64,000 nt of DNA from an uncultured Candidatus Saccharibacteria bacterium (GTDB taxonomy: Bacteria; Patescibacteriota; Minisyncoccia; Phycocordibacterales; 2-02-FULL-43-11), in contig CAYGDO010000002.1 of the NCBI GenBank assembly GCA_964348785.1, forward strand, positions 2,238 to 66,237, read 5' to 3'. The notes beneath the pieces were generated by a model. That model was not told the origin of the DNA. It saw only the letters and a program-made list of their open reading frames with translations, and searched no databases. A program made the translations under genes and the position numbers. Each line of letters starts with the position of its first letter. Position 1 is the first letter of the stretch. Below are positions 9,931 to 57,259 of this stretch, one piece after another.

Positions 9931-10045
9931 CCCCATTAGAAGCCACGGACATTGAATTTAGATCAAGAAATATTTTTAATAATTATCAAAAATCCAACCG
10001 CAAACAAACATCAATATCCTATATATGTCCTCACCTCTAACGGGA
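9931..10045. repeat. MITE-like palindromic repeat, copy A (degenerate), TIRs CCCCATTAGAAG / CCTCTAACGGGA
   Basis: Shares terminal inverted repeats and internal tagat(c/t)aag motif with copies at 11984, 22057, 57136; right end abuts priA stop codon. Confidence 0.5.
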
Positions 10046-11893
10046 CTAGAATAAATTATCAGGATTGACCTCGACACTAATTCTACTTGGTAATGACATC
10101 AAAATTTCAGCCAATGTTTTGTCTGGCCAAGCATCCTTACTGAGCTTTATAAGAGCTCTGCCTTCCTTAAAAACTGAAAACAAAAATGGATTGTAATCTT
10201 TTAAGGTCTCTCTTATCAAATCAGCGTCTTTGGATTTTTCATCACCTTTCCATTTCAACAAAATCAAAAAACCATATGGGGGATAGGAAAGTGATTTTCT
10301 GTCTCTTAATTCTTCATTGTAAAAATCAAACAAATTACCATCTTTAATTCTAGAAATAACTCTTGAAACATCATCTTTGGTTTGAATAAAAAATCTCTTG
10401 CTGGCTTTACTCAAAGAAAAAACCATTGTCCTCAAGGCAATTTCTTCGGAACTAAATCCTGGGATATTGGAAAACGATTCAGCCGATAATACCGCCACCG
10501 ATTCAACTTCCTCAAAAAGAGCGTTTAAAGACATTTCTGTACCCACCAAAACAGAGCCCGGCGAATCAAGAAAACTTTTTATAGTCTTTTCTATTTTTGC
10601 TTCACCTTTTGTTGAATCCTTATCAAGACGAAAAATCTTTTTTTCTGGAAAACGTTCCTTTAGATTTTCTTCGACTGATTCACTACCCAAACCAAAAGTT
10701 TTTAGATTCCAACTATCGCAATGCTGACATTTTGAACCTTTAGCCACAATTTCATTCAAACATTTGTGACACATAAAAAATCTTTCTCCCAAATTAGAAT
10801 GAAGAAACATAAAAGACTGACAATTTTGACACTTAATTGCCAAACCACAATCTCCACAAAAAATATAAGGCGATATCCCACGTCTTGGAACCAAAACAAA
10901 AGCTCGAGAATTATTTTCGACAGAACCGATAAAATTGAGAAACTCTTGATTTAAAATTCTATCATCCTTTTTTTGTGATTGTTTTTCAACGAGCTCAGAA
11001 ACAAATATCTCCGCTTTTGGTTTAAGACGAAAAGAAGCAGGTATATCCTCATATATTGAACCTTCTCTAATACGCTCCACTGTTTCAACTCGGAGCATCA
11101 CATCACCAAGAATCAATCTAAAACCAGCAAACTTTGCATAAGATTCAATAAAAAATCTAAAATCAACATACGGTCGGCCTTCTTTTTTGTAAAATCTTGA
11201 ACCTTCTTCTTCCAAAATTATGGTGCTGATATCTTTTCTCTGCATTCCAACGAACTGAGGTGTTGAAATCATTAAAACTGGGTGTTCGGTCTCGGAAAAC
11301 TTAGAAAACATTTCGACAGCTTTTGCTTTTGGCATTCTTTGATGTATAAAAAATACATAATCACCGATACCTTTTGAAACAGCGGTGGACCATTTTTTTA
11401 CAGAATCAACGGTGGGCAAGATAATTATCACCGATTTATTTCTAGCAAATTCCTCTCTTATAATTGTTCTGATTCTAGAAATTCTATCCTCAAATGAAGA
11501 TTGTATAGCTCGAACTTCTGGCAATCTACTTTGACTTTCGTAATTAGAAAAATTCAAAAAAGATGAGAAATTTTTTGGAGGCAACAAACTGTGAAGTGTT
11601 GCTCCTGGAGTACCACAAAAATAATTGGCAGTTTCTTTGACCGCTTCCATAAAAGCCTTAGAGAAAAAATTCTTCTGACTAATTCTTGAAATCTTACTCA
11701 TCTTAAAAGGTAAAGATTTGAGATAGCCCTTAGCCTCTGACACGTCTTCAATGGAATCAATTTTTGCCAAAATAATTCTATTTCGTAGGGGCACCTCTAA
11801 AAGATCACCCTCTTTGACATCCTCGGAGGTAAAATAATACAGACTTTTTTTTGGTATTCCTCTAGAAATCGGCAATACCGAAATTAGCTTCAT
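10046..11893 (-). CDS. priA: Primosomal protein N' (PriA) homolog lacking Walker A and with degenerate DEXH box
   Basis: N-terminal 3'-DNA-binding domain, Cys4-Cys4 zinc-finger insert (CGDCGLAIKCQNC...CHKC...CQHC), helicase motif II position reads IILEEEGSRFYKK instead of VIVDEEHDSSYK; no G..GSGKT P-loop anywhere; priA-def-fmt synteny. Confidence 0.75.
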   Translation of the reverse strand: MKLISVLPISRGIPKKSLYYFTSEDVKEGDLLEVPLRNRIILAKIDSIEDVSEAKGYLKSLPFKMSKISRISQKNFFSKAFMEAVKETANYFCGTPGATLHSLLPPKNFSSFLNFSNYESQSRLPEVRAIQSSFEDRISRIRTIIREEFARNKSVIIILPTVDSVKKWSTAVSKGIGDYVFFIHQRMPKAKAVEMFSKFSETEHPVLMISTPQFVGMQRKDISTIILEEEGSRFYKKEGRPYVDFRFFIESYAKFAGFRLILGDVMLRVETVERIREGSIYEDIPASFRLKPKAEIFVSELVEKQSQKKDDRILNQEFLNFIGSVENNSRAFVLVPRRGISPYIFCGDCGLAIKCQNCQSFMFLHSNLGERFFMCHKCLNEIVAKGSKCQHCDSWNLKTFGLGSESVEENLKERFPEKKIFRLDKDSTKGEAKIEKTIKSFLDSPGSVLVGTEMSLNALFEEVESVAVLSAESFSNIPGFSSEEIALRTMVFSLSKASKRFFIQTKDDVSRVISRIKDGNLFDFYNEELRDRKSLSYPPYGFLILLKWKGDEKSKDADLIRETLKDYNPFLFSVFKEGRALIKLSKDAWPDKTLAEILMSLPSRISVEVNPDNLF

Positions 11894-11929
11894 ACATAGA
11901 TTATCTAAGAAAAATGAAGTTTTGTATAC

Positions 11930-11975
11930 TCTGTAGACATCGGATGTCTACAGATTTAAAGTTTGCAACTTTAAA
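11930..11975. promoter_or_regulatory. Two adjacent perfect palindromes in priA/murA divergent intergenic region
   Basis: ctgtagacatc-g-gatgtctacag (11-bp arms) and atttaaagtt-tgc-aactttaaat (10-bp arms). Confidence 0.4.
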
Positions 11976-11983
11976 TGGGGAAG

Positions 11984-12093
11984 CCCCGTTAGAAGTCGGG
12001 TTATGTCAAAAAAATAACTAATTTTTAATACAAATATTGGTGAGTATTTTTTTAGATTAAGATCAAAAATAAAGTTTGCAACTTCTAACGGGG
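11984..12093. repeat. MITE-like palindromic repeat, copy B, TIRs CCCCGTTAGAAG / CTTCTAACGGGG
   Basis: Perfect 12-bp terminal inverted repeats 110 bp apart; AT-rich interior homologous to other copies. Confidence 0.55.
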
Positions 12094-12111
12094 TCATTTA
12101 AAATGACGTGA

Positions 12112-13413
12112 ATGAAATTAAAAGAAGAAAGCTTTGTCGTAGAAGGCTTAAATGGCGAAAGGAAACTAAAGGGCAAGATAAAAGTTAATGGTTCAAAAAA
12201 TGGAGCATTGCCACTTTTGTCTTCTATTTTTCTATTCAAAGGACCTGTTACTTTCACCAACGTCCCAAACATTGAAGATGTAAAAAGAATGTCTGAATTA
12301 TTTAAAGACTTGGGAGTAAAAGTTAAAAAAGGAAAAGATAGTTTGACTCTTGATGCGACCTTAGCCAATAAAAGTAATTTAACTAGAGAACTTTCAAAAA
12401 GACTACGCGCCTCTATTATCCTTTTAGGACCGATCCTTGGAAAAATGGGCAAAGTTCAATTTCCTCATCCGGGAGGTTGTGTTATTGGAGAAAGACCGAT
12501 TGATCTTTTCATAGATAATTTCAAAAAAATGGGATCATCTTTTGAAGAAAAAGATGGCACACATACAATCACGACCAAAAAGGAAGGTCTTTTGGGAACA
12601 GAAATTGTCTTTAAAATTCAGAGTGTCACAGCTTCAGAAACTTTTTTGATGGCTGGAATATTAGCCAAAGGTAAAACTGTATTAAAAAATGTTGCTATAG
12701 AGCCAGAAGTAACGGAACTCGCTCATTTCTTAAAAGCTTGTGGAGCAAAAATTGACGGCATTGGAACTACAACTTTAGAAATAGAAGGTGGGGAATTACT
12801 AAATTCACCATTAACTTCAGTCCCCGTAATACCTGATCGAATCGAAGCTGGTAGTTTTCTGATTTTGGGCGCTCTCTGTGGTAAAAATTTAATAATAGAA
12901 AATTGCGAACCGAAACATCTTGATGTGCCAATAAAAATTTTAGAAGAAATGGGCATTGATTTAGAAGTTGGAGAAAATTCAATTACCGTAAAAGGCCTAA
13001 AGAAAGGGTTCGAAAAAACACGTTCTACAAATGTTAAGACTCACGAGTATCCTGGATTCCCGACAGATATTCAAGCTCCAATGGTTGTCCTTCTTACTCA
13101 ATCAGAAGGTGAAGGAACAGTCTTTGAAACAATTTTTGAGGGCAGATTAAACTACACAGATGAATTAAAGAGAATGGGAGCGGATATAAAAATGTATGAC
13201 GCACACCACGTTACGATTAAAGGACCGACGCCCCTAAGAGGGAAAGATTTACAGAGTCCAGATATCAGAGCCGGCTTAGCATTTTTAATCGCAGCAACAG
13301 TTGCAGAAGGAAAATCAGTAATTGGTAATGCTTATCTGATAGACAGGGGCTATGAAAAAATAGAGAAAAGATTGAAAAAAATTGGCGTGGAAATAAAGAG
13401 AGTTAGCAATTAA
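12112..13413 (+). CDS. murA: UDP-N-acetylglucosamine 1-carboxyvinyltransferase
   Basis: KVNGSKNGALPLL N-terminal motif, full-length collinearity with MurA/EPSP-synthase fold. Confidence 0.9.
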   Translation: MKLKEESFVVEGLNGERKLKGKIKVNGSKNGALPLLSSIFLFKGPVTFTNVPNIEDVKRMSELFKDLGVKVKKGKDSLTLDATLANKSNLTRELSKRLRASIILLGPILGKMGKVQFPHPGGCVIGERPIDLFIDNFKKMGSSFEEKDGTHTITTKKEGLLGTEIVFKIQSVTASETFLMAGILAKGKTVLKNVAIEPEVTELAHFLKACGAKIDGIGTTTLEIEGGELLNSPLTSVPVIPDRIEAGSFLILGALCGKNLIIENCEPKHLDVPIKILEEMGIDLEVGENSITVKGLKKGFEKTRSTNVKTHEYPGFPTDIQAPMVVLLTQSEGEGTVFETIFEGRLNYTDELKRMGADIKMYDAHHVTIKGPTPLRGKDLQSPDIRAGLAFLIAATVAEGKSVIGNAYLIDRGYEKIEKRLKKIGVEIKRVSN

Positions 13414-13458
13414 AAAGATAAATTGGAAACTAATCCATTATTCTGATATATTCCAATC

Positions 13459-14478
13459 ATGAAATTCAATTTCTTCTCTCCAAAAATCGGCATTGATTTA
13501 GGTACAGTGAATACCTTAGTCTACACACCAAAAAAAGGCGTAATATTAAACGAACCCTCTGTTGTTGCCGTATCTGAACAAGAAAACAAAATTTTAGCTA
13601 TTGGCACTGAAGCCAAACAAATGATAGGAAAAACTCCCGACAGCATAGTGGCCTATAGACCAATAAGAGATGGTGTTATTGCGGATTATAGAGTGACAGA
13701 AGCGATGCTCAAATATTTTATCAACAAAGCGCTTGGAAGGTTTAATTTGTTCAAGCCAGATGTTTTGTTATCAGTCCCAGCCGGAATCACCTCAACAGAA
13801 AGAAGAGCGGTGATAGAAGCGGCGGTTAAAGCCGGAGCAAAAAATGCTTACGTCATAAAAGAACCGATCTTGGCAGCTATAGGAGCGGGTATTCCAATCA
13901 ATGAACCAATCGGCAGAATGATAATTGATATTGGAGGAGGCACAACAGACGTCGCGGTAATTTCTTTAGGTGGAATTGTGGCCTCAACGTCAGTAAAATG
14001 CGCCGGCGATAAAATCGATTCTGCAATTGCCGATTACATTAAAAAAACTTTCAATCTAGCGATAGGCGAAAGGACAGCTGAAGAAATAAAAATTAAAATT
14101 GGTTCTGCTGTTCCAGTCGAAGAAGAATTGACCATGACAATAAAAGGGCGAGATTTTGTTACCGGCTTACCAAGAGCAACAGAAATAAAAACCAACGAAA
14201 TAACTAAAGCAATAATGAAGGAACTTCGAGATATGATAAAAGCCATAAAAGACGTCCTTCAAGAAACACCGCCGGAATTATCAGCAGATATAATAGAAAA
14301 AGGGATAATAATGACTGGGGGAACCTCACAACTGCGAAATTTTCCTGAATTGGTTCTACGTAAAACTGGGGTCAAAGCAACCTTGGCAAAAGACCCTCTT
14401 CTTTGTGTTGCCAAAGGAACAGGTATCGCCCTAGAACATTTGGAAATTTACAAGAAAGCAATAACTTCCAAAAAATAG
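13459..14478 (+). CDS. mreB: Rod shape-determining protein MreB
   Basis: IGIDLGTVNTLVY phosphate-1 motif, DIGGGTTDVAV phosphate-2, actin-fold ATPase. Confidence 0.9.
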   Translation: MKFNFFSPKIGIDLGTVNTLVYTPKKGVILNEPSVVAVSEQENKILAIGTEAKQMIGKTPDSIVAYRPIRDGVIADYRVTEAMLKYFINKALGRFNLFKPDVLLSVPAGITSTERRAVIEAAVKAGAKNAYVIKEPILAAIGAGIPINEPIGRMIIDIGGGTTDVAVISLGGIVASTSVKCAGDKIDSAIADYIKKTFNLAIGERTAEEIKIKIGSAVPVEEELTMTIKGRDFVTGLPRATEIKTNEITKAIMKELRDMIKAIKDVLQETPPELSADIIEKGIIMTGGTSQLRNFPELVLRKTGVKATLAKDPLLCVAKGTGIALEHLEIYKKAITSKK

Positions 14479-15188
14479 TGTCCACAAAAGACGAAAAAAA
14501 ACATTTGCTAAATTTGTTATCTCAAATAAAATCTGACAGATTTCATCATGCTTATTTACTAAAAAACTTTAGCGAAGAAGAGTATAAAAGCGTCACAAGC
14601 GGAATAAAAGAAATTCTGGGCAAAAAATTACGACCGGAAGATTTTTTTGAAGAAAATATTGAAAATTTAGGCATTAAAGAATCAAGAAGTTTAAAAGACA
14701 GAGCTCAAGTTACACCACTTGGAGAATATAAAACATTTTTTCTAAAAATCTTATCAGTCACAAAAGAAGCAGAAAATGCTCTTTTAAAATTATTTGAGGA
14801 ACCGCCAGCTAGAAGTATCTTCTTTATCTTTTCAAAAAATATAGGACTTTCCAAAATACTTTTATCGAGAATGGTGGTTATTGAGGGGGAATTAGAAATA
14901 GACAATGAAATTTCAAAAAAAATATTTTCTCTAACAATAGGTGAAAAAATTGAATGGGCAAAAAAAATAGCTGATAAATCAAAAGAGGATGAAAATAAAG
15001 AAGAAATAATATCTTTGTTAAACTCAATAGAAAAAGAAATTATCAAAAAAAAGGGGGTAAACTTAAAAACTAAAGACATTTTAAAAGAACTAGAGCAGAG
15101 CAAAAGTTATTTAAAAGACAGATCGGCTGGAGCAAAAATGATTTTAGAGAACATTTTCATAAATATTCATAGATTATTCAAAGAATAG
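14478..15188 (+). CDS. holB: DNA polymerase III delta' subunit-like (HolB), probable GTG start overlapping mreB stop
   Basis: HAYLL... and ENALLKLFEEPP (cf. NALLKTLEEPP) and SRM (cf. SRC) motifs; ORF track start at 14403 would overlap mreB by 75 nt, GTG at 14478 gives TAGTG junction. Confidence 0.6.
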   Translation: MSTKDEKKHLLNLLSQIKSDRFHHAYLLKNFSEEEYKSVTSGIKEILGKKLRPEDFFEENIENLGIKESRSLKDRAQVTPLGEYKTFFLKILSVTKEAENALLKLFEEPPARSIFFIFSKNIGLSKILLSRMVVIEGELEIDNEISKKIFSLTIGEKIEWAKKIADKSKEDENKEEIISLLNSIEKEIIKKKGVNLKTKDILKELEQSKSYLKDRSAGAKMILENIFINIHRLFKE

Positions 15189-15222
15189 CTAGAAAATTTA
15201 CAAAATGATAATATAAGCATAT

Positions 15223-15774
15223 ATGGCATATAATTTTTCAAAATTAAAGGAAAAAGCAAAAAATTTACAAGAATGGTTAGGTAAGGAATTTGGAGGAGTA
15301 AGAACTTCCCGCGCCAATCCAAATATCTTGGATGCGGTTACAGTAGACGTCTACGGCTCTAAAATGCCAATAAGGCAATTGGCTTCAATAACCAATGAAG
15401 ATCCAAGGACAATGAGAATTGTTCCCTATGACACCACCCAGGCAAAAGCTATAGAAAAAGCAATTACTCTTGCTAATCTTGGCCTTTCGGTAGGAGCAGA
15501 TGACAAGGGCGTTAGAGTCTCTTTTCCTGATTTAACTTCAGAAAGAAGATTGGCGCTTATTAAGGTAGCAAAAGAAAAATTGGAGCAAGCTAAGATAAGT
15601 CTTCGAAAATTAAGAGATGAAGAAGTGGATGAAATTCAAAAAATGGAAAAAGCTAAAACCATAAGCGAAGATGAAAAATTCAGATTAAAAGCCGAATTAC
15701 AAAAAATTATAGACGGAGAATCAAAAATTCTTGACGATAATTTTGCCAAGAAAGAAAAAGAGATCTCTTCTTAA
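15223..15774 (+). CDS. frr: Ribosome recycling factor
   Basis: Full-length collinearity with RRF (GGVRTSRANPNILD...VDVYGS..P..Q.A.I). Confidence 0.9.
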   Translation: MAYNFSKLKEKAKNLQEWLGKEFGGVRTSRANPNILDAVTVDVYGSKMPIRQLASITNEDPRTMRIVPYDTTQAKAIEKAITLANLGLSVGADDKGVRVSFPDLTSERRLALIKVAKEKLEQAKISLRKLRDEEVDEIQKMEKAKTISEDEKFRLKAELQKIIDGESKILDDNFAKKEKEISS

Positions 15775-15776
15775 AA

Positions 15777-16871: not shown

Positions 16872-16883
16872 TCTTTTAATTAA

Positions 16884-18239: not shown

Positions 18240-19301
18240 ATGAAAAAATACTTAGAAAAATTTAGAAGATTTGTATCTAACGATATAGGAATTGATTTAG
18301 GGACCGCAAACACCTTAGTCTACGTCAAAGGTAGAGGAATCATAATAAATGAACCCTCTGTTGTCGCTTTTAACCAAAAAACCAACCAGGTGGTGGCTAT
18401 AGGAATCCATGCCAAAAATATGCTGGGCAGAACTCCGCAACATATTTCCGCCATTCGACCACTTGTCGGTGGTGTGATTTCTGACTTTGAAATTACCGAA
18501 GAAATGATTGCTCATCTCATTAGAAAGGCAGAAGATAATTCAAAAAAAATTTTGGGGCCAAGGGTCGTAGTAGGTATTCCTTGTGGTATCACTAATGTAG
18601 AAACAAGAGCAGTAAGAGACGCCACAAAAAATAACGGGGCAAGAGAGGTTTATATTGTAGAACAACCGATGGCAGCAGCGATTGGCATTAGACTTCCCGT
18701 TAAAGAACCCGTTGGTAATATGATAGTTGATATTGGTGGTGGAACAACAGATATCGCTGTTATTTCTTTGGGTGGAATCGTAAGATCAAAAACTTTAAAA
18801 ATAGCAGGGGATAAACTCAATGAAGATATCATCTCCTATATGCGTAACGAATTTAAAATCTTAATTGGCGAAAAAACGGCTGAAAATATAAAAATTTCTA
18901 TTGGCTCTGTAATACCAGATAAAAATAGCTTGGAAACTCCAGTCAAAGGTAGAGACTTAGTAACAGGACTCCCAAGACAAGTCATTATCACTGATGATGA
19001 TATAAGAGAAGCAACAGCGATTTCCATAAATTCAATTTTAGAATCAGCAAAAGAAGTTTTAGAAATAACGCCACCGGAAATAGTCTCAGATATTATGCAT
19101 AGAGGTATATACCTCGTTGGAGGCGGAGCCTTGATCAGAGGATTAAACGAACTTTTATCAGATTACTTAAAAATCCCAGTTTACGTAGCAGAAGACCCGC
19201 TGACCGCCGTAGCAAGGGGGACAGGTTTTATACTTGAAAACCTAGAAGATTTCAAAGATATTCTTATAGAAAACGATAATGCCTTACCTCCAGAAAAATA
19301 A
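18240..19301 (+). CDS. MreB paralog (second actin-like rod-shape protein)
   Basis: IGIDLGTANTLVYVKG, DIGGGTTDIAVISLGGIV; sits immediately upstream of mreC/mreD/PBP2. Confidence 0.85.
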   Translation: MKKYLEKFRRFVSNDIGIDLGTANTLVYVKGRGIIINEPSVVAFNQKTNQVVAIGIHAKNMLGRTPQHISAIRPLVGGVISDFEITEEMIAHLIRKAEDNSKKILGPRVVVGIPCGITNVETRAVRDATKNNGAREVYIVEQPMAAAIGIRLPVKEPVGNMIVDIGGGTTDIAVISLGGIVRSKTLKIAGDKLNEDIISYMRNEFKILIGEKTAENIKISIGSVIPDKNSLETPVKGRDLVTGLPRQVIITDDDIREATAISINSILESAKEVLEITPPEIVSDIMHRGIYLVGGGALIRGLNELLSDYLKIPVYVAEDPLTAVARGTGFILENLEDFKDILIENDNALPPEK

Positions 19302-22039: not shown

Positions 22040-22056
22040 ACGATCACTCTGATTGA

Positions 22057-22170
22057 CCCCGTTAGAGGCAGGACACGGACAGAATATTTGAGTTTCTGTT
22101 CTCTTAGATTCCAGTTAATTTTTAACAATATTTCTCAATCTTAAGTTAATGTCCGTGGCCTCTAACGGGG
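22057..22170. repeat. MITE-like palindromic repeat, copy C, TIRs CCCCGTTAGAGGCAGGACACGGAC / GTCCGTGGCCTCTAACGGGG
   Basis: ~25-bp imperfect terminal inverted repeats, flanked by TTGA direct repeat; interior tttaacaatatttct shared with copy D. Confidence 0.55.
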
Positions 22171-22231
22171 TTGACCGAAATCTCAAAAAAGGTTAAAATT
22201 ATGACTCAAAATTAAAAATAAGGCCTAGAAT

Positions 22232-42026: not shown

Positions 42027-42344
42027 CTATTTATTAAATTTTTTTTCAATAAATCGCGCAAAAGAATTGTCGGGAGAACAACCAGCATATACCTTAGTCC
42101 ATCCAAAACCAACAATAGGGATACCGCCATAAGATTTACACTCCTCTTCAGAGTATGTTTTTTTATAAAAAACATACGTGCCTCCGTTATCTGGACAAAC
42201 ATCACCAAAACATACAGTTTTAATTTTGTATGGATTTATTATATAGGCCAATAAAAGTATTAAAATAATAGAAAATAAAATTTTTAAAAATTTTTTCATA
42301 AAGGGAATTATAGCATTTAAGAAGGGGAGTCGGGGGGGGTTCAA
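42027..42344 (-). CDS. Small secreted Cys-rich protein (likely starts at internal MKKFLKIL)
   Basis: Signal/TM then CFGDVCPDNGG...CKSYGG...GCSPDN. Confidence 0.35.
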   Translation of the reverse strand: MNPPRLPFLNAIIPFMKKFLKILFSIILILLLAYIINPYKIKTVCFGDVCPDNGGTYVFYKKTYSEEECKSYGGIPIVGFGWTKVYAGCSPDNSFARFIEKKFNK

Positions 42345-42650
42345 ATCCCATTAGGGTCTAAAAATTACAAAACAAAAACAGAGCATCCACTCTGTTTTTG
42401 GTAATTTGTGACCCTAATGGGAATTTTGAAACTTACAGTTTCAGTACACCTTTCCCATTTGCTTATAATAAGAATTACTCGCAAATAAGGGAGAAGGTTT
42501 TCAAATCCCATACGCAAGTGAATCAATTCACTTGCTTAGGGTCATTAATAAAAATGGCTTTGGAAAAAACCAAAGCTAATTTTTATACTAATGACCCTAA
42601 TTAGTGAAAATTGGAATCTACTTTTAAAGCAAATGAAAGTTTTTAAAGTC

Positions 42651-43221: not shown

Positions 43222-43875
43222 AATTTGTTCAGTCAGTTTTATTAATAATATTTATTATAACACTATAGATAATATTTTATTCTTAATAAGGTTTATACCC
43301 CTAATGGGATTTTCCTTCGACTCTCAGCTAGCCGTCGCTCGAAACAGTCACATTCGCTCTGCTAAGCTCAGTACTTCCTCGCTCTCGCTTGGTCGCTAGG
43401 CACCGACTCGCTTGTTTTTTCTGCTGAAAAAACATAGCTCCGTCGTTCAAATCCCATACGCAAAGCGAGCAGTCGCTTTGCTTAGGGTCATTAATAAAAA
43501 TGGCATAACTAATGGGAATTTTGCCCGCGACTAAAACTTTTTCGTCAAAAAGTTTTGTCTGGGCACCGACTCGCGCTTCGCCGAAACGGCTCAATGCGCT
43601 CCGTCGTTCAAATCCCATTAGGATCTAAAAATTACAAAACAAAAACAGAGCATCCACTCTGTTTTTGGTAATTTGTGACCCTAATAGAAACAGGGACTTG
43701 GTCACAAATCATTTTGTGCCGTCGCACAAAATGTTCGCGACCCCAGCTCAGCATTTTGCGAAACGTAAAATATGCCTGCGCTTTTCAAATCCCATATGCA
43801 AAGCGAGCAGTCGCTTTGCTTAGGGTCATTAATAAAAATGGCTTTGGAAAAAACCAAAGCTCATTTTTATACTAA

Positions 43876-43950
43876 TGACCCTAATGGGATTTGAACCCAT
43901 GTTACCGGATTGAAAATCCGATGTCCTAGACCAGGCTAGACGATAGGGCC
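43876..43950 (-). tRNA. tRNA-Glu (anticodon UUC)
   Basis: Minus strand GGCCCTA-TC-GTCT-AGCCTGGTCTA-GGAC-A-TCGGA-TTTTCAA-TCCGG-TAAC-ATGGG-TTCAAAT-CCCAT-TAGGGTC-A folds as cloverleaf; collinear with E. coli tRNA-Glu. Confidence 0.85.
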
Positions 43951-44084
43951 AGCACCATAATTATAGCAAATTATCAATAACCAATTTTCAAATTTTCATT
44001 GAAATTGCTAAAAGCTAGTGGCTAATAGCTAGGCGCTAGTATATACCATTTTTATGAAAAAAGGCAAAAAAAATCCCCAAGAGA

Positions 44085-44797: not shown

Positions 44798-44927
44798 ATT
44801 AAATAAAAAATAAAATATTAAAAACCATAAAGTATACAATGAAGATTATAACACGTGAAAAACCGTGGACTATTAATACCTAATGCCTAATGGCTAATGG
44901 CTATTTTTAAATGATATAATCTATCTC

Positions 44928-45995
44928 ATGAATTCCAGTGTCCTTATTGTAATAATTGTAGCTTTGGTTCTAATCATAGGAATCAACGCTTACATTCTTT
45001 GGAAACTATCTTCAAAAAAGGATGAGAAAGGAGAAAAAAATGATGTTGGTTTCCAATTACTTCTTCAACACGTAAATGATTTATCAAGAACGCTGGATGC
45101 AAAAATAGGGGAGACGACCAGACAAATGAACGAATCAGTAAAAACCCAATTTGGCGAATCTGCAAAATTAATCAGAGAAGTAACCGTCGGTCTAACAAAA
45201 CTCGATGAAACTAATAGACAGGTGGTTTCTTTTGCTGATCAACTTCAAAATCTTCAAGATATTCTAAAAAATCCAAAACAAAGAGGAATTCTTGGTGAAT
45301 ATTATCTTGAAACTCTACTTAAAAATGTTTTACCTCCAGGCCAATACCAAATGCAATACGCATTTTCAAATGGTGAAATCGTAGATGCGGTGGTTTTTGT
45401 AAAAGATAAAATTATTCCGATAGATTCAAAATTTAGTTTGGAAAATTATAATCGTCTGACAGAAGAAAAAAATCCCACTGAAAAAGAACGTTTAGAAAAA
45501 CTTTTTGTAAACGATTTAAAAAACCGTATTCAAGAAACTTCAAAATATATAAGACCAAACGAAAATACAATGGATTTTGCTTTTATGTTTATTCCTCACG
45601 AAGCTATTTATTACGATTTACTTATAAACAAAGTTGGAGCAGTGACAGAAGATACTGAAAATCTTATCCAAAGAGCTGCCAATAAATACAAAGTTATTAT
45701 CGTTTCCCCGACGTCATTTTTGGCCTATCTACAAACAGTATTACAAGGACTGAAAGCCATGCAGATAGAAGAAACTGCCAAAGATATAATCAAAAGAGTG
45801 GAAGAACTTGGTAAACATTTAAAAAACTATGAGGAATATCACAAAAAACTTGGTAACTCTCTTGGTACCGCCGTCAGCCATTTCAATAATGCAGGAAAAG
45901 AATTTAAAAAACTTGATAAAGATGTTGTCCGTATCACAGGAAATGTTGTAGGGATAGAAACACTGTCGATTGAAAAACCCGAGTCGGAAGAATAG
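44928..45995 (+). CDS. rmuC: DNA recombination protein RmuC
   Basis: N-terminal TM, long coiled-coil, conserved C-terminal FAFMFIPHEAIYYDL region. Confidence 0.8.
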   Translation: MNSSVLIVIIVALVLIIGINAYILWKLSSKKDEKGEKNDVGFQLLLQHVNDLSRTLDAKIGETTRQMNESVKTQFGESAKLIREVTVGLTKLDETNRQVVSFADQLQNLQDILKNPKQRGILGEYYLETLLKNVLPPGQYQMQYAFSNGEIVDAVVFVKDKIIPIDSKFSLENYNRLTEEKNPTEKERLEKLFVNDLKNRIQETSKYIRPNENTMDFAFMFIPHEAIYYDLLINKVGAVTEDTENLIQRAANKYKVIIVSPTSFLAYLQTVLQGLKAMQIEETAKDIIKRVEELGKHLKNYEEYHKKLGNSLGTAVSHFNNAGKEFKKLDKDVVRITGNVVGIETLSIEKPESEE

Positions 45996-46953: not shown

Positions 46954-46962
46954 GTAGTCATC

Positions 46963-46990: not shown

Positions 46991-47026
46991 TAGTATTTAG
47001 CATTTACATATGCTAGGATTTGTTGT

Positions 47027-49207: not shown

Positions 49208-49213
49208 AAAATT

Positions 49214-50455: not shown

Positions 50456-50591
50456 AAATATTCAACGAAAATAAAGGCGCTACAAAAATATATATTTTAA
50501 ACGTACGCGCATATTTAAACACACTAGGTTAATTAAAAAGGGTCCGACCTGTGTCAGACCCTCGACAAAAACCTGCTCGGGTAGCCGCACC

Positions 50592-50936: not shown

Positions 50937-51202
50937 AGCGCCTCCAACTTTCCGACAGATACTTGCCCACAATCTAAACTTGAATGCCTGGTTCAAGAAA
51001 AGATATTGGCTTAACCAAAAAGGGGTTTCGAAGCCCTTTAAGTTGGTCTGGGATGGTAGCAAATCTATGCCCCTGTCCCAAAGTACCTATTGTCAATATT
51101 ATAACATATATAGGAGAAAAAGCAAGGAATCTGCCTCCCCGTAAAACAGGAAGCCTGTCACGGGGTAGGCACGCTTTACGTCTCCTGTTTTTGAAAACTG
51201 TC

Positions 51203-51814
51203 TTACTCTCTATGCTTCAGTGCATTTTTCAAAGTATCCGCATCGGCATATTCAAGTTCAGTTCCAGTCGATAAACCACGTCCTAAAACTGTAATTTTGA
51301 AGTTATCGACAGATATTGGGGAAAGATGGGACACAATGAAATCGCCAGTGTTTTCACCCTCAGAATTGGCATTTAAAGCCAAAATAACCTCTTTTAAACC
51401 CTCTTTTGAGAGCTTTTTGACCAAAGATATCAATTCTTTCAATCTAATCTTTTTTTCAGGTTCTTTATCCAAAATTGGCACACTACCACCCAAAACAAAA
51501 TACAATCCTTTATAAGCTCCACTTTTTTCAACCATTTCAAAATCAACGTCACGAGAGACAATCATCAATATAGTTTTGTCACGATTTTTATCAGAACAAA
51601 TATTGCAAAGCTCGGCCGAAGACCCCACGTGAAAAAATCTATGGCAAGAAGCGCATTCTTTAGAAGTTTTTCTAACATTAACAATCAGTTTTGATAGGGA
51701 ATCAGAATAACTAAACTCTCTAGTCAAAATAAAATAAGCAAAACGTTTGGCCTGTCTTGGACCAATACCTGGAAATTGTCGAAACGCCTCTACCAATCGG
51801 TTAAATTCTTCCAT
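51203..51814 (-). CDS. recR: Recombination protein RecR
   Basis: N-terminal HhH (FPGIGPRQAKR), C4 zinc finger CASCH...CNICSD, Toprim domain. Confidence 0.9.
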   Translation of the reverse strand: MEEFNRLVEAFRQFPGIGPRQAKRFAYFILTREFSYSDSLSKLIVNVRKTSKECASCHRFFHVGSSAELCNICSDKNRDKTILMIVSRDVDFEMVEKSGAYKGLYFVLGGSVPILDKEPEKKIRLKELISLVKKLSKEGLKEVILALNANSEGENTGDFIVSHLSPISVDNFKITVLGRGLSTGTELEYADADTLKNALKHRE

Positions 51815-51819
51815 CTTAT

Positions 51820-53262
51820 TTAAAAATTATCTAATCCTTTGCCGGGAACATTTGGAGTCGAAGAGAAATCATTAAAATCACCCTTTTCTAAACTCATAAA
51901 AGTTGATCTATCAGAATCAAAATACAATTCAACTTTACCAGTCGGTCCATTTCTATGCTTTTCAATCAAAATTTCAGCGATATTTGGCTTTTCACTGTTT
52001 TCATTATATTTATCTTCACGATGAATAAACATAACGACATCAGCGTCCTGTTCAATAGAACCAGAATCCCTAAGGTCTGAAAGTCTTGGTCTGCCACCTC
52101 TTTGTTCAACTGCACGATTTAACTGCGACAAAGCAAGAACGGGAATATTTAATTCACGAGCCAAATTCTTTAGAGAACGAGAAAGTTCCGTAACTTGTTG
52201 AACAACAGAATCAGATGCACGACTGTCTGTGGGGACCATAAGCTGTAAATAATCGACAATAATTAATCCAAGATTTTTTTCACTTTTCAACCTACGGGCC
52301 ACTGATCTCATTTTTATAATATTATTGCCAGGTTGATCATCAATATAAACTGGTGCCTTTGAGAGTCTGTCCAGTGAGTCTCTAATTCTGTCAAAATCAT
52401 TTTCAGCAGACAATCTACCAGTTCGAAGTTTCCAAGCATCAACTCTAGATTCAGCGGCAAGCATTCTATCAACCAACTGTTGAGAGCTCATTTCAAGAGA
52501 AAAGACACAAACAGGAATAGAATGATTGATAGCAGCTTGTCTTGCTATATCAAGAGCAAGAGAAGTTTTACCCATAGAAGGACGGGCTGCCAAAATTATC
52601 AAATCTGATTTTTGAAGACCGGCCAACTTATTATCAAGACTTGGAAAACCAGTTGGTACACCACGAAGTTCATCTTTTGATTTATGCAATTTATCAATTC
52701 TTTCCCATGCCTCACCTAAAATATCTTTGAGTTCTAAAAACTTATGATTTTTAGAAGTTGAGTTCGCAACTTCATAAATTCTTTTTTCTGCCTTATCAAG
52801 CAATTGCTCAACGTCCGCTACTTCGTCATAACCCAAATAAGTAATATACTCAGCGGCCTCAATAAGACTTCTCATCAGATTTTTATTGTGAACAATGTTA
52901 GCGTACTGTCTGACATTTACCGAAGAGGGAACATACTCAATAAGTTCAGCCAAATAAGTACTGCCACCGATTGATTCCAAACTACCTTTTTCTTTTAATC
53001 TGGAAGAAATCGTTAACAAATCTATTGGTTCATTTTTTCCAAGAAGTTCAAGCATTACCTCAAAAATAATGCGGTGTTTATCAAAATAAAAAGACTTAGG
53101 AGAAACAATGTCCACTATTTCATAGACTGCTCCAGGTCTCATCATAACTGAACCGAGCAATGCTTTTTCCGCCTCAAGATTTTGAGGTGGTACTTTTAAA
53201 GTGTTTGTACTCATATGTGTCGCCTGATTTCTTGTATTTTTTGTAATTGCCATGAAAGGCAT
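51820..53262 (-). CDS. dnaB: Replicative DNA helicase DnaB
   Basis: N-terminal PPQNLEAEKALLGSVM, Walker A ARPSMGKTSLALD, RecA-like C-domain. Confidence 0.9.
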   Translation of the reverse strand: MPFMAITKNTRNQATHMSTNTLKVPPQNLEAEKALLGSVMMRPGAVYEIVDIVSPKSFYFDKHRIIFEVMLELLGKNEPIDLLTISSRLKEKGSLESIGGSTYLAELIEYVPSSVNVRQYANIVHNKNLMRSLIEAAEYITYLGYDEVADVEQLLDKAEKRIYEVANSTSKNHKFLELKDILGEAWERIDKLHKSKDELRGVPTGFPSLDNKLAGLQKSDLIILAARPSMGKTSLALDIARQAAINHSIPVCVFSLEMSSQQLVDRMLAAESRVDAWKLRTGRLSAENDFDRIRDSLDRLSKAPVYIDDQPGNNIIKMRSVARRLKSEKNLGLIIVDYLQLMVPTDSRASDSVVQQVTELSRSLKNLARELNIPVLALSQLNRAVEQRGGRPRLSDLRDSGSIEQDADVVMFIHREDKYNENSEKPNIAEILIEKHRNGPTGKVELYFDSDRSTFMSLEKGDFNDFSSTPNVPGKGLDNF

Positions 53263-53470
53263 TTTAGCACAGTGGGAAATAATAAAAGTTATAAAAGTTA
53301 TTAAGCTGTGGGGAAGGTGGGGAGATCATAAACAATTTCTAAGACCTAATTATTAATTTCTAATACAAAATCCCAGCCCCCTAGCCCAGAACACACTCTG
53401 AGGCTTTTTTATTTTTTGAAACAACCTTGACGATAAATAAATTAAGGGTAATCTCTATTTGGAACAAACC

Positions 53471-53623
53471 ATGAACAACGACACTGAAGTCCGGGTGGAT
53501 CGCCTAAGGGATGATAGGACTCTTCGAAGAAGTCTCGCCGTCGCGACAGTCACAGTTCTGGCCTTGGGATTTGCCCTTGGCCTTCTCTGGCTCTGGGTCG
53601 GCAACAAACCGTTTTGAGGATAG
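53471..53623 (+). CDS. GC-rich 50-aa ORF with one TM helix (MNNDTEVRVDRLRDDRTLRRSLAVATVTVLALGFALGLLWLWVGNKPF)
   Basis: High-GC codon usage unlike host; TTGACG -35-like upstream; no SD; coding status uncertain. Confidence 0.25.
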
Positions 53624-53729
53624 AGTCCGATGGCGGTTTTTTTATTGCAACTTAGGACGAGGTCAAACTTTTTTGAAACAAAATGCCCACAAATACAGTT
53701 TGATATTCATAGATTAAATAGTTATAATC

Positions 53730-54410
53730 GTGCGCAATATGCAAGCAGTAATACTAGCCGCCGGACGTGGCAAAAGAATGAATCATCTGACAAATGACAC
53801 ACCAAAACCTATGATACAGGTTGGTGGTAAAAATTTGATTGAATGGAAATTAGAGAGACTGCCAAAAGAAGTGGATGAAGTAATTTTGGTCATTGGTTAT
53901 CTTGGTGAAAAAATCAAAAATTATTTTGGTTCAAATTTTGCTGGCAAAAAAATAACCTATGTTGAACAAGGTGATTTAAGTGGAACAGGTTCAGCATTAT
54001 TTAGAGTAAAAGACCTACTTAGTGGACAATTTATAGTAATGATGGGGGATGATATTTATGGAGAAGATGATGTCAAAAAGGCGCTTTCAAATGGTTGGAG
54101 TATTTTAGTAGAAAAAGTAAAAACACCAAAAAAAGGTGCAAAAATTATCCTTAATGAAGATAATACGATAAAAGATATTATTGAAAGATCTGATTTAAAT
54201 ATAGGAGAAATAAACAATGCTGGAATGTACGTTTTGGGAACAGAAATTTTCAATTATCCCTTAGTGCCAATAGGTAATGATGAATTTGGATTACCCCAAA
54301 CAATAGTTAAGGCTCTTAAAGATTTCAAAATAAAAATAATAGAAGAAACTGGCTGGATACAAGTCACTAACCCAGAAGATGTAGAAAAAGCTGGAAAATT
54401 AATTAAATAA
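53730..54410 (+). CDS. Sugar-phosphate nucleotidyltransferase (NTP_transferase family)
   Basis: AVILAAGRGKRMNHLTNDTPKPMIQVGGKNLIEW signature G..RGKR loop. Confidence 0.75.
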   Translation: MRNMQAVILAAGRGKRMNHLTNDTPKPMIQVGGKNLIEWKLERLPKEVDEVILVIGYLGEKIKNYFGSNFAGKKITYVEQGDLSGTGSALFRVKDLLSGQFIVMMGDDIYGEDDVKKALSNGWSILVEKVKTPKKGAKIILNEDNTIKDIIERSDLNIGEINNAGMYVLGTEIFNYPLVPIGNDEFGLPQTIVKALKDFKIKIIEETGWIQVTNPEDVEKAGKLIK

Positions 54411-54412
54411 AT

Positions 54413-55798
54413 TTAAACTCTTTTTATAGTTTGTTCTCCTTCACTGTCATTCACCTCAAAACCTAAATCTTTTATTTGATTTCTAATTAAATCAGATTTT
54501 GCCCAATCTTTAGCATCTCTTGCTTTTTTTCTTTCCTCCAAAAGATTCTTAACTTCTATCGGCAAAACTATAGACTTCTCATCTCGACTAATTTTTTCCA
54601 AATTTAAACCCAAAACTTTATCAAATTCCAAAATAGTGGCTTTCTTATTTTCTCCTAAAACAGCATCGTCTTTGATTAAATCCCAAAGGACAGCAACAGC
54701 TTGAGAAAAATTTAAATCATCATTTATGGCTTCTTTAAAACGATCAATGTAATACTCATTTACCTTACCTAAATTCTTTACAGAGGTAATAAATGAAACA
54801 ATTTTAAAAAATGCATTCTGACTGGCTTCCAATGCCTCAAAAGAAAAATCCATTTGAGTTCTGTAATGAGCACCAAGCAAATAGTACCTATAAGCGACGG
54901 GATTAAAGCCTTTTTCAATAATAGTCCTAAGAGTAACAAAGCCCTCGCCTGACTTTGCCATTTTATTGCCTGATAAATTCAGATGTTCATTATGAAGCCA
55001 ATATTTTGCCATCGGAACTCCAAAAGCTGATTCGGATTGAGCAATTTCATTATTATGATGTGTGCCAATATGATCCACTCCACCAGTATGAATATCAAAC
55101 GGAACTCCAAGATATTTTTCTGACATTCCCGAACACTCAATATGCCAACCAGGAAAACCCTTACCCCAAGGAGACTGCCAACCCAAATCCTTATTAAATT
55201 TCCACAAACAAAAGTCTGATTGAGATTTCTTTTCTGGATTTATAGCAACTCTTGCTCCATCTTTTTTATTATCCGTTGCAAAGCTTCCCAATTTTCCGTA
55301 ATCAGAAAATTTTGAAGTTTCAAAATAGACACCATCAGAAATTTTATAAATGAGATTTTTATTTTCTAATTTTTTTATAATAGCAATGTCAGCATCAATA
55401 TTATCGCTTGCTCTTGGCATAACATCTGGCAAAGAAATATTGAGAATTTTCAAGTCTTCAACAAAAGCATTTTCATAAAACAAAGCAATCTCTTTCATTG
55501 ATTCAAGATTCAAAGGTTTTCCTTCTCTTAAAATGGCCTTTGTCATTTTATCTTCTCCTTCATCAGAATCTGTTACCAGCTGACCAACATCAGTAATATT
55601 CATTACCTGTCTAACTTTATAACCGCCAAAAAGTAAAGTTCTCTTAAGTAAATCAACAAAAACATACGCTCTTAGATTGCCAATATGAGCATAGTTGTAA
55701 ACAGTGGGGCCACAGTTGTACATTCTAACTTCCTCTTTTTTAATAGGGGAGAAAATTTCTTTTTTACCTGACAGAGTATTTAAAAGCTTTAATTCCAT
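54413..55798 (-). CDS. cysS: Cysteine--tRNA ligase
   Basis: MYNCGPTVYNYAHIGN (HIGH), KMAKSGEG (KMSKS-like), Zn-binding Cys. Confidence 0.9.
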   Translation of the reverse strand: MELKLLNTLSGKKEIFSPIKKEEVRMYNCGPTVYNYAHIGNLRAYVFVDLLKRTLLFGGYKVRQVMNITDVGQLVTDSDEGEDKMTKAILREGKPLNLESMKEIALFYENAFVEDLKILNISLPDVMPRASDNIDADIAIIKKLENKNLIYKISDGVYFETSKFSDYGKLGSFATDNKKDGARVAINPEKKSQSDFCLWKFNKDLGWQSPWGKGFPGWHIECSGMSEKYLGVPFDIHTGGVDHIGTHHNNEIAQSESAFGVPMAKYWLHNEHLNLSGNKMAKSGEGFVTLRTIIEKGFNPVAYRYYLLGAHYRTQMDFSFEALEASQNAFFKIVSFITSVKNLGKVNEYYIDRFKEAINDDLNFSQAVAVLWDLIKDDAVLGENKKATILEFDKVLGLNLEKISRDEKSIVLPIEVKNLLEERKKARDAKDWAKSDLIRNQIKDLGFEVNDSEGEQTIKRV

Positions 55799-55815
55799 AA
55801 AAAGATACTACCATC

Positions 55816-56733
55816 TTAAAGCCATTTTTTCATCTTGAAAAAAGCATAAAAAAATAAACCAAGTAACACTTCACCACCAGCAATAATCCAAAAAGAATTT
55901 GGAAGATTAATGAAAGGCGTACCCTTTGCTCCGATTTGAAACCAAGAAGTGATGATGCTTAAAGGTAAAGTTATAAAAGCGATAACAGTCAAAGCTTGAG
56001 TAATTTGATTTTGCTTAGTAGTCAAAAGAGCATTGTTGGTCTCTCGTAGTTCAGACATAAACTCCAACATATTTCGGATAGAATTTTCTACTTTTACATA
56101 TTCACCAATAAGAGATCTCAAATAAAACCGGAATTCTTCACCAAAAAATTTAATTGAGGCAACTTCAAAAGATTCTAAAATCTCGTCATGAAGACTGGTT
56201 GCCCGTTTAAAATCCAAAAGCTCTCTTGAGACCTCTGACAATTTCTTAACCATTTCCTTTTCTCTACCTTTAAAAATCTCATCCTCAATAGAAGCCAGTT
56301 TGTCTTTAATCCTTTCAGTTTTATGCAAAATAGATTCATAAATCTTTTTAAGCATTTCAAAAAAGATAAAGCCGGCGTGAGCACCTTTTGCTCCTTTTTC
56401 TAAGATTGCCTCAACTTCCAAAGATTTTGATAACGCGAGAAGGGCATCAACTTCTCCATATCTCGTAGTAATAATAAAATTCTTTCCAACGATAAAATCC
56501 ATTTCTTGATCATCTTGCCCACCATCAACATTTTTTCGAAGAGAAGGGAAGTGAAGAATTAAATAAATAAAGTTGTCATACAAATCAACCTTGGGTCTTA
56601 AGGTTGGAATATTGAGTTCATGCGCAACTAAAGGATGAATATTGTATTCAGAAACAATCTGCCTAATTTCATCAACAGATGGAGAAATTAAATCTACCCA
56701 GACTAAATTTCCAGAGTGATATTTTTGTATCAT
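55816..56733 (-). CDS. CorA-family divalent cation transporter homolog lacking the GMN motif
   Basis: N-terminal CorA fold (WVDLISPSVDEI...IHPLVAHEL...RPKVDLYDNFIYLILHFP), two C-terminal TMs; position of YGMNF reads SWFQIGAKG. Confidence 0.65.
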   Translation of the reverse strand: MIQKYHSGNLVWVDLISPSVDEIRQIVSEYNIHPLVAHELNIPTLRPKVDLYDNFIYLILHFPSLRKNVDGGQDDQEMDFIVGKNFIITTRYGEVDALLALSKSLEVEAILEKGAKGAHAGFIFFEMLKKIYESILHKTERIKDKLASIEDEIFKGREKEMVKKLSEVSRELLDFKRATSLHDEILESFEVASIKFFGEEFRFYLRSLIGEYVKVENSIRNMLEFMSELRETNNALLTTKQNQITQALTVIAFITLPLSIITSWFQIGAKGTPFINLPNSFWIIAGGEVLLGLFFYAFFKMKKWL

Positions 56734-56802
56734 AGTTAGAAAAATTATATCACAAAAATTTACATTGCTTTAATTTAAAATCCGTTTATAGTTCTGTGTT
56801 AG

Positions 56803-57069
56803 ATGAAAAGAAAAAGATCTCATTGGATTTTCCAGGGAGGGTTCAAACGACAAAAAAGAGCAGGGGAATCTCCCCAAAAATGTGCGGAATGCCACATGCC
56901 GATAAACAATGGGGAAGTCTACACTGGAGAAATCTGGAAACATTATGGTAGATTGATCACTCTTAGACGACATGAAAATTGCACAACACGGCTAGAACGT
57001 GGTCATGTTTGGTGCGCCATCACAGCACTTTCTCTCATCGTCCCAACCACTACTCCCATCACCCGGTAG
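56803..57069 (+). CDS. Possible small Cys/His-containing protein in mildly GC-enriched patch
   Basis: 88-aa ORF with CAECH...HENC; ends inside hairpin accactac...gtagtggtTTTTTTT (57046-57080). Confidence 0.25.
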   Translation: MKRKRSHWIFQGGFKRQKRAGESPQKCAECHMPINNGEVYTGEIWKHYGRLITLRRHENCTTRLERGHVWCAITALSLIVPTTTPITR

Positions 57070-57135
57070 TGGTTTTTTTAATGTTTGTCCAAACCTTTCT
57101 TCTGCCAAGAAAGAAAGTTTGGTTACAAACATTAA

Positions 57136-57259
57136 TCCCGTTAGAAGTAGGGCACAGACAGGATGTTTACATTTCATAACTTTTGAGTATTTGATAATCT
57201 TTAACAATGTTTCTTAATCTAGATTTAGTATCTGTAGCTTCTAATGGGATAAATCCTGA
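57136..57259. repeat. MITE-like palindromic repeat, copy D, TIRs TCCCGTTAGAAG / CTTCTAATGGGA
   Basis: Left arm cccgttagaagtagggcacagacagga parallels copy C cccgttagaggcaggacacggacagaa; interior ctttaacaatgtttcttaatct parallels copy C. Confidence 0.55.

Follow-up and report, generated by a model that had tools for sequence, protein, structure and literature searches.

Patescibacteria have genomes of about 1 Mb with little room for selfish DNA, yet four short palindromic repeats lie between the genes of the locus studied here, and the same element occurs in many lineages of these bacteria, there mostly on start codons. What, then, are these repeats, and how are they tolerated? The window, i.e., the whole stretch of 64,000 nt that was analysed, belongs to contig CAYGDO010000002.1 of an uncultured Candidatus Saccharibacteria bacterium, and its four repeats are referred to as copies A to D. 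We conclude that they probably represent a family of non-autonomous DNA transposons of Patescibacteria, i.e., MITEs (miniature inverted-repeat transposable elements). The elements are short and non-coding, end in inverted repeats, are flanked by a duplication of fixed length, occur in multiple copies with recent spread, and have empty sites in relatives. The initial annotation of this DNA had proposed a non-autonomous, MITE-like element; this is supported by terminal inverted repeats (TIRs) of 13 bp, a 4-bp duplication, the multi-copy state, and the comparison of filled with empty sites.

Four elements with paired arms in the window

The four elements carry paired arms reading CCCGTTAGARG ... 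CYTCTAAYGGG, which lie 86–91 nt apart, at the following positions in the window:

9931–10045, minus strand: copy A, 115 bp, type 1, in the priA-def spacer; its 5'-TIR-A/G-stem 2 polarity is read on the minus strand, and its edge lies 1 nt past the priA stop codon (CTA at 10046–10048, plus strand)
11984–12093, no strand given, as polarity is not assignable: copy B, 110 bp, with standard 13-nt ends and an unrelated interior, between the divergent genes priA and murA; the murA -10 box is 5 nt downstream of it
22057–22170, plus strand: copy C, 114 bp, type 1, with ends C...G, flanked by TTGA at 22053–22056 and 22171–22174
57136–57249, plus strand: copy D, 114 bp, type 1, with ends T...A, inside some 300 nt of additional sequence that separates the terminator of the open reading frame (ORF) 56803–57069 from the ctpA promoter (57401–57430)

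A search for the arm CCCGTTAGARG with at most one mismatch returned nine matches in the window against 0.87 expected, a number that none of 100 shuffles reached; eight of the nine are the four element pairs, and a relaxed search gave no fifth copy in the window. Copy A has to be reverse-complemented to align with C and D, at 72–74% identity over 102–106 nt, and with the ends removed the interiors of reverse-complemented A, C and D still align with a z-score of about 8 against shuffles. The interior of B, in contrast, gives a z-score of about 0 against A, C and D in either orientation, the ends being the only common part. These measurements leave most of the first description of the four copies in place: all are present where they had been reported, except that D had been drawn 10 nt too far (to 57259 instead of 57249) and that the sizes, short as stated, span 110–115 bp and not 110–124 bp. 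The related interiors noted for C and D prove homologous throughout, and the TTGA direct repeat around C is there; a motif 'tagat(c/t)aaga' said to be common to A and B is not significant, because the interior of B is unrelated to the others.

Could these be chance palindromes, or ordinary terminators or operators with a short common motif? All copies are intergenic hairpins in AT-rich DNA, and B has the ends alone in common with the rest, which is what such a reading would predict. It is refuted by the arm enrichment unmatched in the shuffles together with the conserved arm spacing, by the homology of the A, C and D interiors, by the target duplications and empty sites described below, and by at least 119 loci elsewhere with these ends; we give it next to no credence.

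Empty sites in sister genomes

Judged by the named relatives of its GreA, MurA and CtpA, the window itself comes from a genome of the Paceibacteria (Parcubacteria), and we compared it with sister genomes of that group. All four copies are absent at the orthologous sites, and none occurs in the 17 sister loci; the window copies are therefore insertions. In two relatives whose MurA is 75–77% identical to that of the window (L130 and L133), the priA-def spacer measures 43 nt against 161 nt in the window with copy A, and the priA-murA spacer 80 nt (L130) and 75 nt (L133) against 218 nt with copy B. The spacer between the ORF and ctpA is 86–92 nt long in L134 and L137 and 373 nt long in the window, where the extra DNA that holds copy D sits between a conserved terminator and a conserved ctpA promoter. 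Three genomes with a GreA 85–91% identical (L122, L125 and L127) have an empty, 65-nt PBP2-greA spacer, which reads unbroken aaTTGACC-17-TAAAAT, whereas the window reads TTGA[C]TTGACC, with copy C in brackets. The comparison of the filled with the empty greA site shows that C entered the -35 box and that the duplication rebuilt the box; the greA promoter is kept in all five aligned genomes. Two promoters thus bear on the window copies:

22171–22199, plus strand: greA promoter, TTGACC-17-TAAAAT, 10/12 consensus matches
12076–12104, plus strand: putative hybrid murA promoter, with TTGCAA (12076–12081) in the 3' end of copy B, a 17-nt spacer and the native TAAAAT (12099–12104)

The murA ATG follows at 12112, 7 nt past TAAAAT, in a leaderless-type layout, and the native murA promoter of the relatives reads TTGAAT-16-TAAAAT-6-ATG. 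From this layout, B may donate a -35 box to murA and so form a hybrid promoter. The suggestion that the repeats may supply promoters fits B, through a putative TTGCAA box 17 nt from the murA -10 box. The genes next to the copies code for a PriA-like protein, MurA, PBP2/MrdA, GreA and an S41 CtpA-like protease, with def downstream of A; the names given earlier to the flanking genes (priA, murA, greA and ctpA) are borne out, the PriA-like assignment having strong E-values that yet stay under the NCBIfam cut-offs. The window copies sit close to promoters or between cistrons, in spacers where gene function is spared.

Several further structures were observed beside these sites. In a relative with a GreA 72% identical (L128, 1303–1500), another insertion of about 130 nt, not of this family, occupies the PBP2-greA spacer, which seems to be a recurrent landing site. 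In the priA-murA spacer of the window, a perfect hairpin TCTGTAGACATCGGATGTCTACAGA is followed by AAAGTTTGCAACTTTAAATGGGG (11929–11981 together); AAAGTTTGCAACTTTAAATGGGG matches the 3' end of B (12070–12093) at 19/23 positions and may be a remnant of an older tandem copy. Directly upstream of D, a 58-nt palindrome (57078–57135; TTAATGTTTGT...ACAAACATTAA) with an inner CCAAAC...GTTTGG stem lies inside the approximately 300 nt absent from the sister genomes, and may be a second small inserted element.

A family spread over many lineages of Patescibacteria

One genome per prokaryotic species was scanned with the paired-arm pattern, which gave at least 119 loci, taken as 8-kb blocks; as the pattern demanded the known ends, divergent relatives would escape it. 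The family counts below refer to 150 elements, from the listed 8-kb blocks and the window. Among the matches listed, the carriers are almost all metagenome-assembled genomes of Patescibacteria from many candidate lineages: Paceibacteria, Kaiser-, Lloyd-, Azam-, Zambryski-, Nomura-, Jorgensen-, Moran-, Yanofsky-, Lipton-, Sungii-, Portnoy-, Gribaldo-, Falkow-, Komeili- and Levyibacteria, Kazan, and many labelled Saccharibacteria. The density is 4 copies in the 64-kb window and up to 3 per 8-kb block, and near-identical elements are found within one genome, in L049 (two copies) and L057. Phage origin was considered and dropped: the paired pattern has 0 matches in 2.9 million viral contigs, and 11 viral single-end matches, all without a partner arm, look like chance.

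Seven loci among the matches listed carry labels of other phyla. The bins of L023, L032, L033, L039, L064 and L087 are named as Syntrophobacter, Elusimicrobia, Planctomycetota, Gammaproteobacteria, delta proteobacterium and Bdellovibrionales; L039 holds a canonical copy and may be mis-binned Patescibacteria DNA, and L023 and L064 hold a different, GC-rich nested variant of the paired arms. The 13-nt ends with their TNNA duplication could serve as a marker that flags possible Patescibacteria contigs in bins of other phyla.

Solitary arms are rare: the blocks and the window hold 17 orphans, most of which, where examined, are degenerate copies or 28-nt mini-hairpins. Such mini-hairpins, about 28 nt long and consisting of nothing but the two ends, or tandem elements occur in L031 (1263–1290), L009 (6786–6810), L107 (about 2831–2860) and L071 (6504–6720); the mini-hairpins could be internal deletions or excision products, and the tandem elements are separated solely by ATGAAT or ATTCAT.

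Ends, target duplication and hairpin module

The terminal inverted repeat reads Y-CCCGTTAGARG-Y. Its outermost base, outside CCC/GGG, is complementary between the two ends in 144/149 elements (T..A 107, C..G 36), and the repeat is therefore 13 nt long; that this base belongs to it is a correction to the ends given in the initial annotation. Elements are 100–129 bp long, with a few of 65–184 bp, and contain short stop-rich frames only and no transposase gene. An exact 4-bp direct repeat with the consensus TNNA flanks 88/149 copies (59%) and extends to 5 bp in six. The near-identical copies in L049 and L057 differ in this repeat (TTCA versus CGCA), which shows that it is copied from the target and not encoded by the element. 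For the same reason, the alternative of a regulatory repeat of REP/BIME type, also raised at the outset, is not favoured.

The interior of many elements is polar (88/150, including A, C and D, which belong to the commonest subtype), with the layout 5'-TIR - A - stem 2 (GGWCGCG-like) ... AT-rich ... stem 2' - G-Y-R - TIR-3'. The unpaired junction A is present in 79/80 elements, opposite GCG, GCA or GTG. Stem 2 has 7 GC-rich base pairs that covary, with G-C in 29 versus A-T in 18 elements at one position, T-A in 38 versus A-T in 10 at another, and C-G in 45 versus A-T in 5 at a third. The AT-rich variable segment forms either the loop of stem 2 (distal subtype) or lies past a local stem-2 hairpin (local subtype) that sits 14 nt from the element end. 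The local subtype has the sequence GTAG-GAAATC-TTTA-GATTTC, whereas in the distal subtype the head is GCAG and the stem long-range, and many distal copies, as judged by eye, also seem to have a local partner. In stem 1, formed by the two ends, 98.5% of pairs are Watson-Crick, and the variants AGAAG, AGAGG (the two common ones), AGAAA and AGAGA change in concert in both arms.

Is this hairpin read as RNA? The window copies, first A and D, were seen to fold better on one strand. Across the family, the sense-minus-antisense folding energy averages -0.9 kcal/mol (p = 0.04), and the stem 1 mismatches in gene sense are 9 G.U versus 11 A.C (105 elements). With symmetric stem mismatches and a marginal energy bias, a strand-specific RNA structure was dropped: pairing is kept up, but nothing marks it as that of an RNA made from a single strand. 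The suggestion of a structured RNA finds no backing, the stem mismatches showing no G.U excess on either strand. In Rfam, the copies have no match at the gathering score, nor does the region around C at E ≤ 10.

The same anatomy bears on the alternative of a single-strand (HUH-type) mobile hairpin, like IS200/IS605-derived palindromes or REP/REPIN-RAYT, which would move as folded single-stranded DNA and whose subterminal hairpin would be recognised by a Y1 transposase, possibly a domesticated host gene. The element folds as one hairpin over its full length, with concerted changes at the variable positions of its arms, the invariant junction is followed by a covarying 7-bp stem often headed by GTAG or GCAG, an RNA-type G.U bias is lacking, and a strand-specific mechanism would explain the near-absolute strand polarity relative to genes reported below. 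However, HUH transposition leaves no target duplication, whereas more than half of the copies here have an exact one, which moreover differs between near-identical copies; both ends are of one sequence instead of a distinct left and right; the three polar window copies lie opposite to the usual gene-relative orientation; and no Y1 gene was noticed, though no systematic search for one was made. We therefore regard this alternative as unlikely.

Placement on start codons and -35 boxes

Most elements, 103 of the 150, abut an ORF start codon at offset 0 (77/88 polar and 26/62 non-polar), counting ORFs from 60 aa upwards, or from 20 aa upwards when cut off by the locus end. The 5 nt upstream of the element repeat the first 5 nt of the gene (ATGRA), with 72–81% identity per position, and the sixth base is the T of the element. 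Elements with T..A ends pair with ATG and those with C..G ends with GTG; the duplication is therefore TGRA, and the last base of the element recreates the start codon. Seven genes of this class have element-free orthologues in the window; in four the alignment starts from residues 1–3, and in the other three it is offset by 8–48 residues, partly from over-extended window ORF calls. By these alignments the second ATG is the real N-terminus of the gene. One such orthologue offers an unoccupied target:

44915–44932, plus strand: rmuC start, TATAAT-7 nt-ATGAA, with the ATG at 44928

At the position that is empty in the window, the rmuC orthologue in L068 is filled and reads tgcTATAATctcaatATGCAAT / CCCG...CGGG / ATGCAAA, with slashes at the element edges.

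The genes with an element on the start codon include topA, gyrA, ssb, tig, alaS, clpP, hpf and other housekeeping genes; some of them, e.g., gyrA and topA, are normally essential and apparently survive the insertion. They are diverse, forming 92 clusters among 103 genes with 107 Pfam families, and a regulon was rejected, the downstream genes being functionally unrelated. In two cases (L086/L098 and L039/L056) the subtype differs between orthologues from separate genomes. A Shine-Dalgarno-like motif precedes 7% of targeted genes, 9% of control genes from the same loci and 2% of window ORFs; a TANNNT box lies 5–8 nt before the first ATG in 38%, 22% and 32%, respectively, with a peak at 6–7 nt as in murA and rmuC. 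These figures suggest that leaderless mRNAs are common in these genomes, with the element at about +5 of the transcript.

A second class lies on promoters. Among the 44 copies away from start codons, nine, including C, abut a TTGACA-like hexamer (at least 5/6) at the element edge, against about 0.5 cases expected by chance (background 0.57% per position), and six of the nine have a -10 box 17 nt further on.

Possible translation across the element

How might a gene be expressed when its start codon has been split by a hairpin with a predicted energy of about -39 kcal/mol on average? The frame of the first AUG is open across the interior in 32/103 copies, compared with 12–23 in the other five frames. 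Copies fall into length classes of 1, 2 and 0 (mod 3) in numbers of 50, 30 and 23, and in the first class 19/34 stop at the UAA of the arm, 4 nt before the real ATG. This pattern fits a translation-driven unwinding followed by re-initiation, with soft statistics, as the copies are related to one another. RNase III processing would be an alternative to re-initiation; such processing has been reported for Correia elements. Two other routes were considered and rejected: an in-frame coding insert, as 1/69 reads through, and ribosome bypass, as there is no stop codon after the first ATG, which makes bypassing of the gene-60 type unlikely.

A further alternative is that the hairpin works in cis, as a conserved regulatory RNA or DNA module with which leaderless mRNAs begin; a protein conserved in Patescibacteria would bind it and act, for example, on stability, translation or RNase III processing, and the module would be spread by transposition and kept by selection. 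The exact placement at the first codons of many normally essential genes, which must therefore still be expressed, is in keeping with it, as are the core conserved across lineages, the upstream ORF whose frame is open about twice as often as the others and often ends at the UAA of the arm, and the different subtypes on orthologous genes. The downstream genes are nonetheless unrelated, the sister genomes do without the copies, neither the near-equal G.U and A.C mismatches nor the marginal energy bias favours an RNA, and there is neither an Rfam match nor a conserved internal sigma-70 promoter. Such a module appears improbable as the explanation of the family.

Under the transposon reading, a transposase supplied in trans would make 4-bp staggered cuts, and insertions persist where the duplication rebuilds the interrupted signal. 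At -35 boxes this gives TTGA / element / TTGACA, e.g., copy C. At start codons, the most frequent site, it gives A-TGRA / element / TGRA, the last base of the element (A or G) recreating ATG or GTG; the targets are genes without a Shine-Dalgarno sequence, often with a -10-like box 5–8 nt upstream of the ATG. The interrupted gene would then be transcribed as AUG - hairpin - AUG - ORF, with the promoter still firing at the first AUG. Ribosomes would start at this AUG, translate a short upstream ORF, open the hairpin and re-initiate at the second AUG, again without a Shine-Dalgarno sequence.

Polarity relative to genes and points against the transposon reading

The polar elements are not oriented at random. 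In 74/77 polar start-codon copies (74:3) the end with the junction A and stem 2 faces the ORF, with a split of 45:0 in the distal and 19:3 in the local subtype. In the window, the three polar copies point the same way as the genes next to them, a rare arrangement elsewhere. An internal sigma-70 promoter was rejected as the cause of polarity, the fraction with at least 9/12 consensus matches being equal to that of shuffled interiors in either orientation; TANNNT positions inside the elements are weakly clustered. The polarity could reflect selection on the transcript or a guided, oriented insertion.

Several observations weigh against a family of non-autonomous DNA transposons. Symmetric ends with a symmetric duplication do not predict a polarity so near to absolute. 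The concerted arm changes, the invariant junction and the covarying stem suggest that a folded single strand is recognised, as would be more typical of HUH or integron-type systems, and for a MITE it is unusual that a 13-nt end stays the same in so many lineages. Among the window copies only C has an exact flanking duplication, A, B and D having none. Neither an autonomous element nor a transposase with these ends turned up in the window or in the roughly 0.9 Mb of loci that were sampled. Lastly, the sole evidence for re-initiation is the roughly two-fold frame bias, taken from related, non-independent copies. As to the search for an autonomous partner, the candidates turned out to be ordinary genes (repeat-flanked ORFs) and degenerate copies or mini-hairpins (orphan arms), and the ORFs of the window that were scanned, those beside the copies and those close to repeat-rich regions, included no transposase.

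A bolder version of the transposon reading would take in polarity and placement at once. More than a tolerated parasite, the family might be a mobile module common to the Patescibacteria, one that finds promoter landmarks (the -35 hexamer and the transcription or translation start of leaderless genes) by guidance, inserts with fixed polarity and makes 'AUG - hairpin/upstream ORF - AUG' units dependent on translation-coupled unwinding or on a conserved hairpin-binding protein; we consider this possible but less likely than not. If true, mobile DNA would here reshape the start of translation in a manner not seen before, in bacteria largely without Shine-Dalgarno sequences. More generally, the element gives a handle on how Patescibacteria start translation without such sequences, through leaderless starts or re-initiation, and on what mobilises their DNA, and the motif can also help to correct gene-start calls and to seek the transposase.

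Comparison with known repeat families

The Correia elements of Neisseria, RUP/BOX, ERIC and Nezha resemble this family in being about 100–150 bp long, non-coding, multi-copy and intergenic or promoter-proximal, with inverted repeats and a short duplication. Like it, they may contribute promoter boxes and, in a joint transcript, form long hairpins, and no transposase is known for Correia elements either. Compared with Correia-type MITEs, the present family differs in its end sequence, in a 4-bp TNNA instead of a TA duplication, in occurring in many Patescibacteria lineages and not one genus, and in its start-codon and -35 placement, fixed polarity and hairpin module at one end. This spread, placement, polarity and conserved structured end are its unusual features. 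The element was not found described in open-access full text or in Rfam, so that an earlier description elsewhere is possible; the full-text literature likewise held nothing relevant on the motif, on MITEs of Patescibacteria, on start-codon insertion or on leaderless mRNAs in this group.

REP/BIME and REPIN-RAYT sequences are also palindromic hairpin repeats, with a G-Y-A-G head before the stem in many copies, and REPINs form a doublet-like overall hairpin of about 100 nt, as here. REP units are palindromes of 20–40 nt with a GTAG or CGTC head, processed by a Y1 (RAYT) enzyme and without a target duplication; here the head is GTAG in the local and GCAG in the distal subtype. In contrast to REP and REPIN, this family has a true 13-bp inverted repeat, a 4-bp duplication derived from the target and one asymmetric core instead of two inverted REPs; no RAYT gene was noticed alongside the elements, no search aimed at RAYT having been made. 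IS200/IS605-derived palindromes have a left and a right subterminal hairpin that are distinct, and they insert 3' of a fixed tetra- or pentanucleotide without a duplication; here the two ends are identical, and the flanking 4-mers vary and are duplicated. The IS1380 family has ends that begin with CC and duplications of 4–5 bp, IS1380 itself being reported with a 4-bp TCGA. An IS1380-type enzyme may be the nearest lead to a transposase; none was found here, no comparison aimed at IS1380 having been made.

Integron attC sites are likewise imperfect hairpins (57–141 bp) with a variable loop, conserved GTT/AAC triplets in the outer stem and extra-helical bases by which the active strand is set. 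They read AAC...GTT (R'' RYYYAAC ... R' GTTRRRY), however, as against GTT...AAC (GTTAGAG...CTCTAAC) in the present elements, and they stand in cassette arrays near an intI gene, whereas the family has no cassette arrays and no integrase but is dispersed, with target duplications, at the starts of housekeeping genes. Rickettsia palindromic elements, mycobacterial MIRUs and mitochondrial 'byp' elements are likewise selfish hairpins or short repeats tolerated in or between coding units; MIRUs contain small ORFs whose stops and starts couple translation, and byps have duplicated take-off and landing codons. By contrast, the present family is not translated in frame and sits on the start codon itself. 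From cis-regulatory RNA families it differs in an incoherent set of downstream genes, the lack of a G.U bias and the absence of an Rfam match.

Other repeats and genes in the window

A repeat-rich region surrounds tRNA-Glu(ttc) (43875–43951, minus strand). Between 42339 and 43951, opposite-strand copies of the tRNA 3' end (GTTCAAATCCCAT...) lie beside the gene, together with two 85-nt palindromic units (42339–42423 and 43606–43690, 96% identical) and three 76-nt repeats (starts at 42483, 43429 and 43767), with small ORFs without Pfam matches in between; it seems that integration at the tRNA gene happened repeatedly and left these scars. Of the 13 positions of the MITE end, 10 are matched by the palindrome arms TCCCATTAGGGTC. 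An origin of the ends from tRNA was nevertheless rejected: only the 3' end of this tRNA-Glu is similar (10/13), and 50 tRNAs in the loci reach at most 6/12.

An inverted repeat of 34 nt with 91% complementarity has one arm in the tRNA-Glu region (42420–42453) and the other (61055–61088) in the stretch that follows tRNA-Val (60773–60847), where three related terminator-like hairpins start at 60857, 60977 and 63665. A 55-nt direct repeat (61569–61623 and 62060–62114, 95% identical) with a promoter-like TTGACT...GATATCAT precedes two small ORFs, one of which (62212–62766) has a weak PEP-CTERM motif. Finally, two MreB-like paralogues lie 5 kb apart (13459–14478 and 18240–19301) and have in common a 39-nt stretch, 82% identical, near the N-terminal coding ends.

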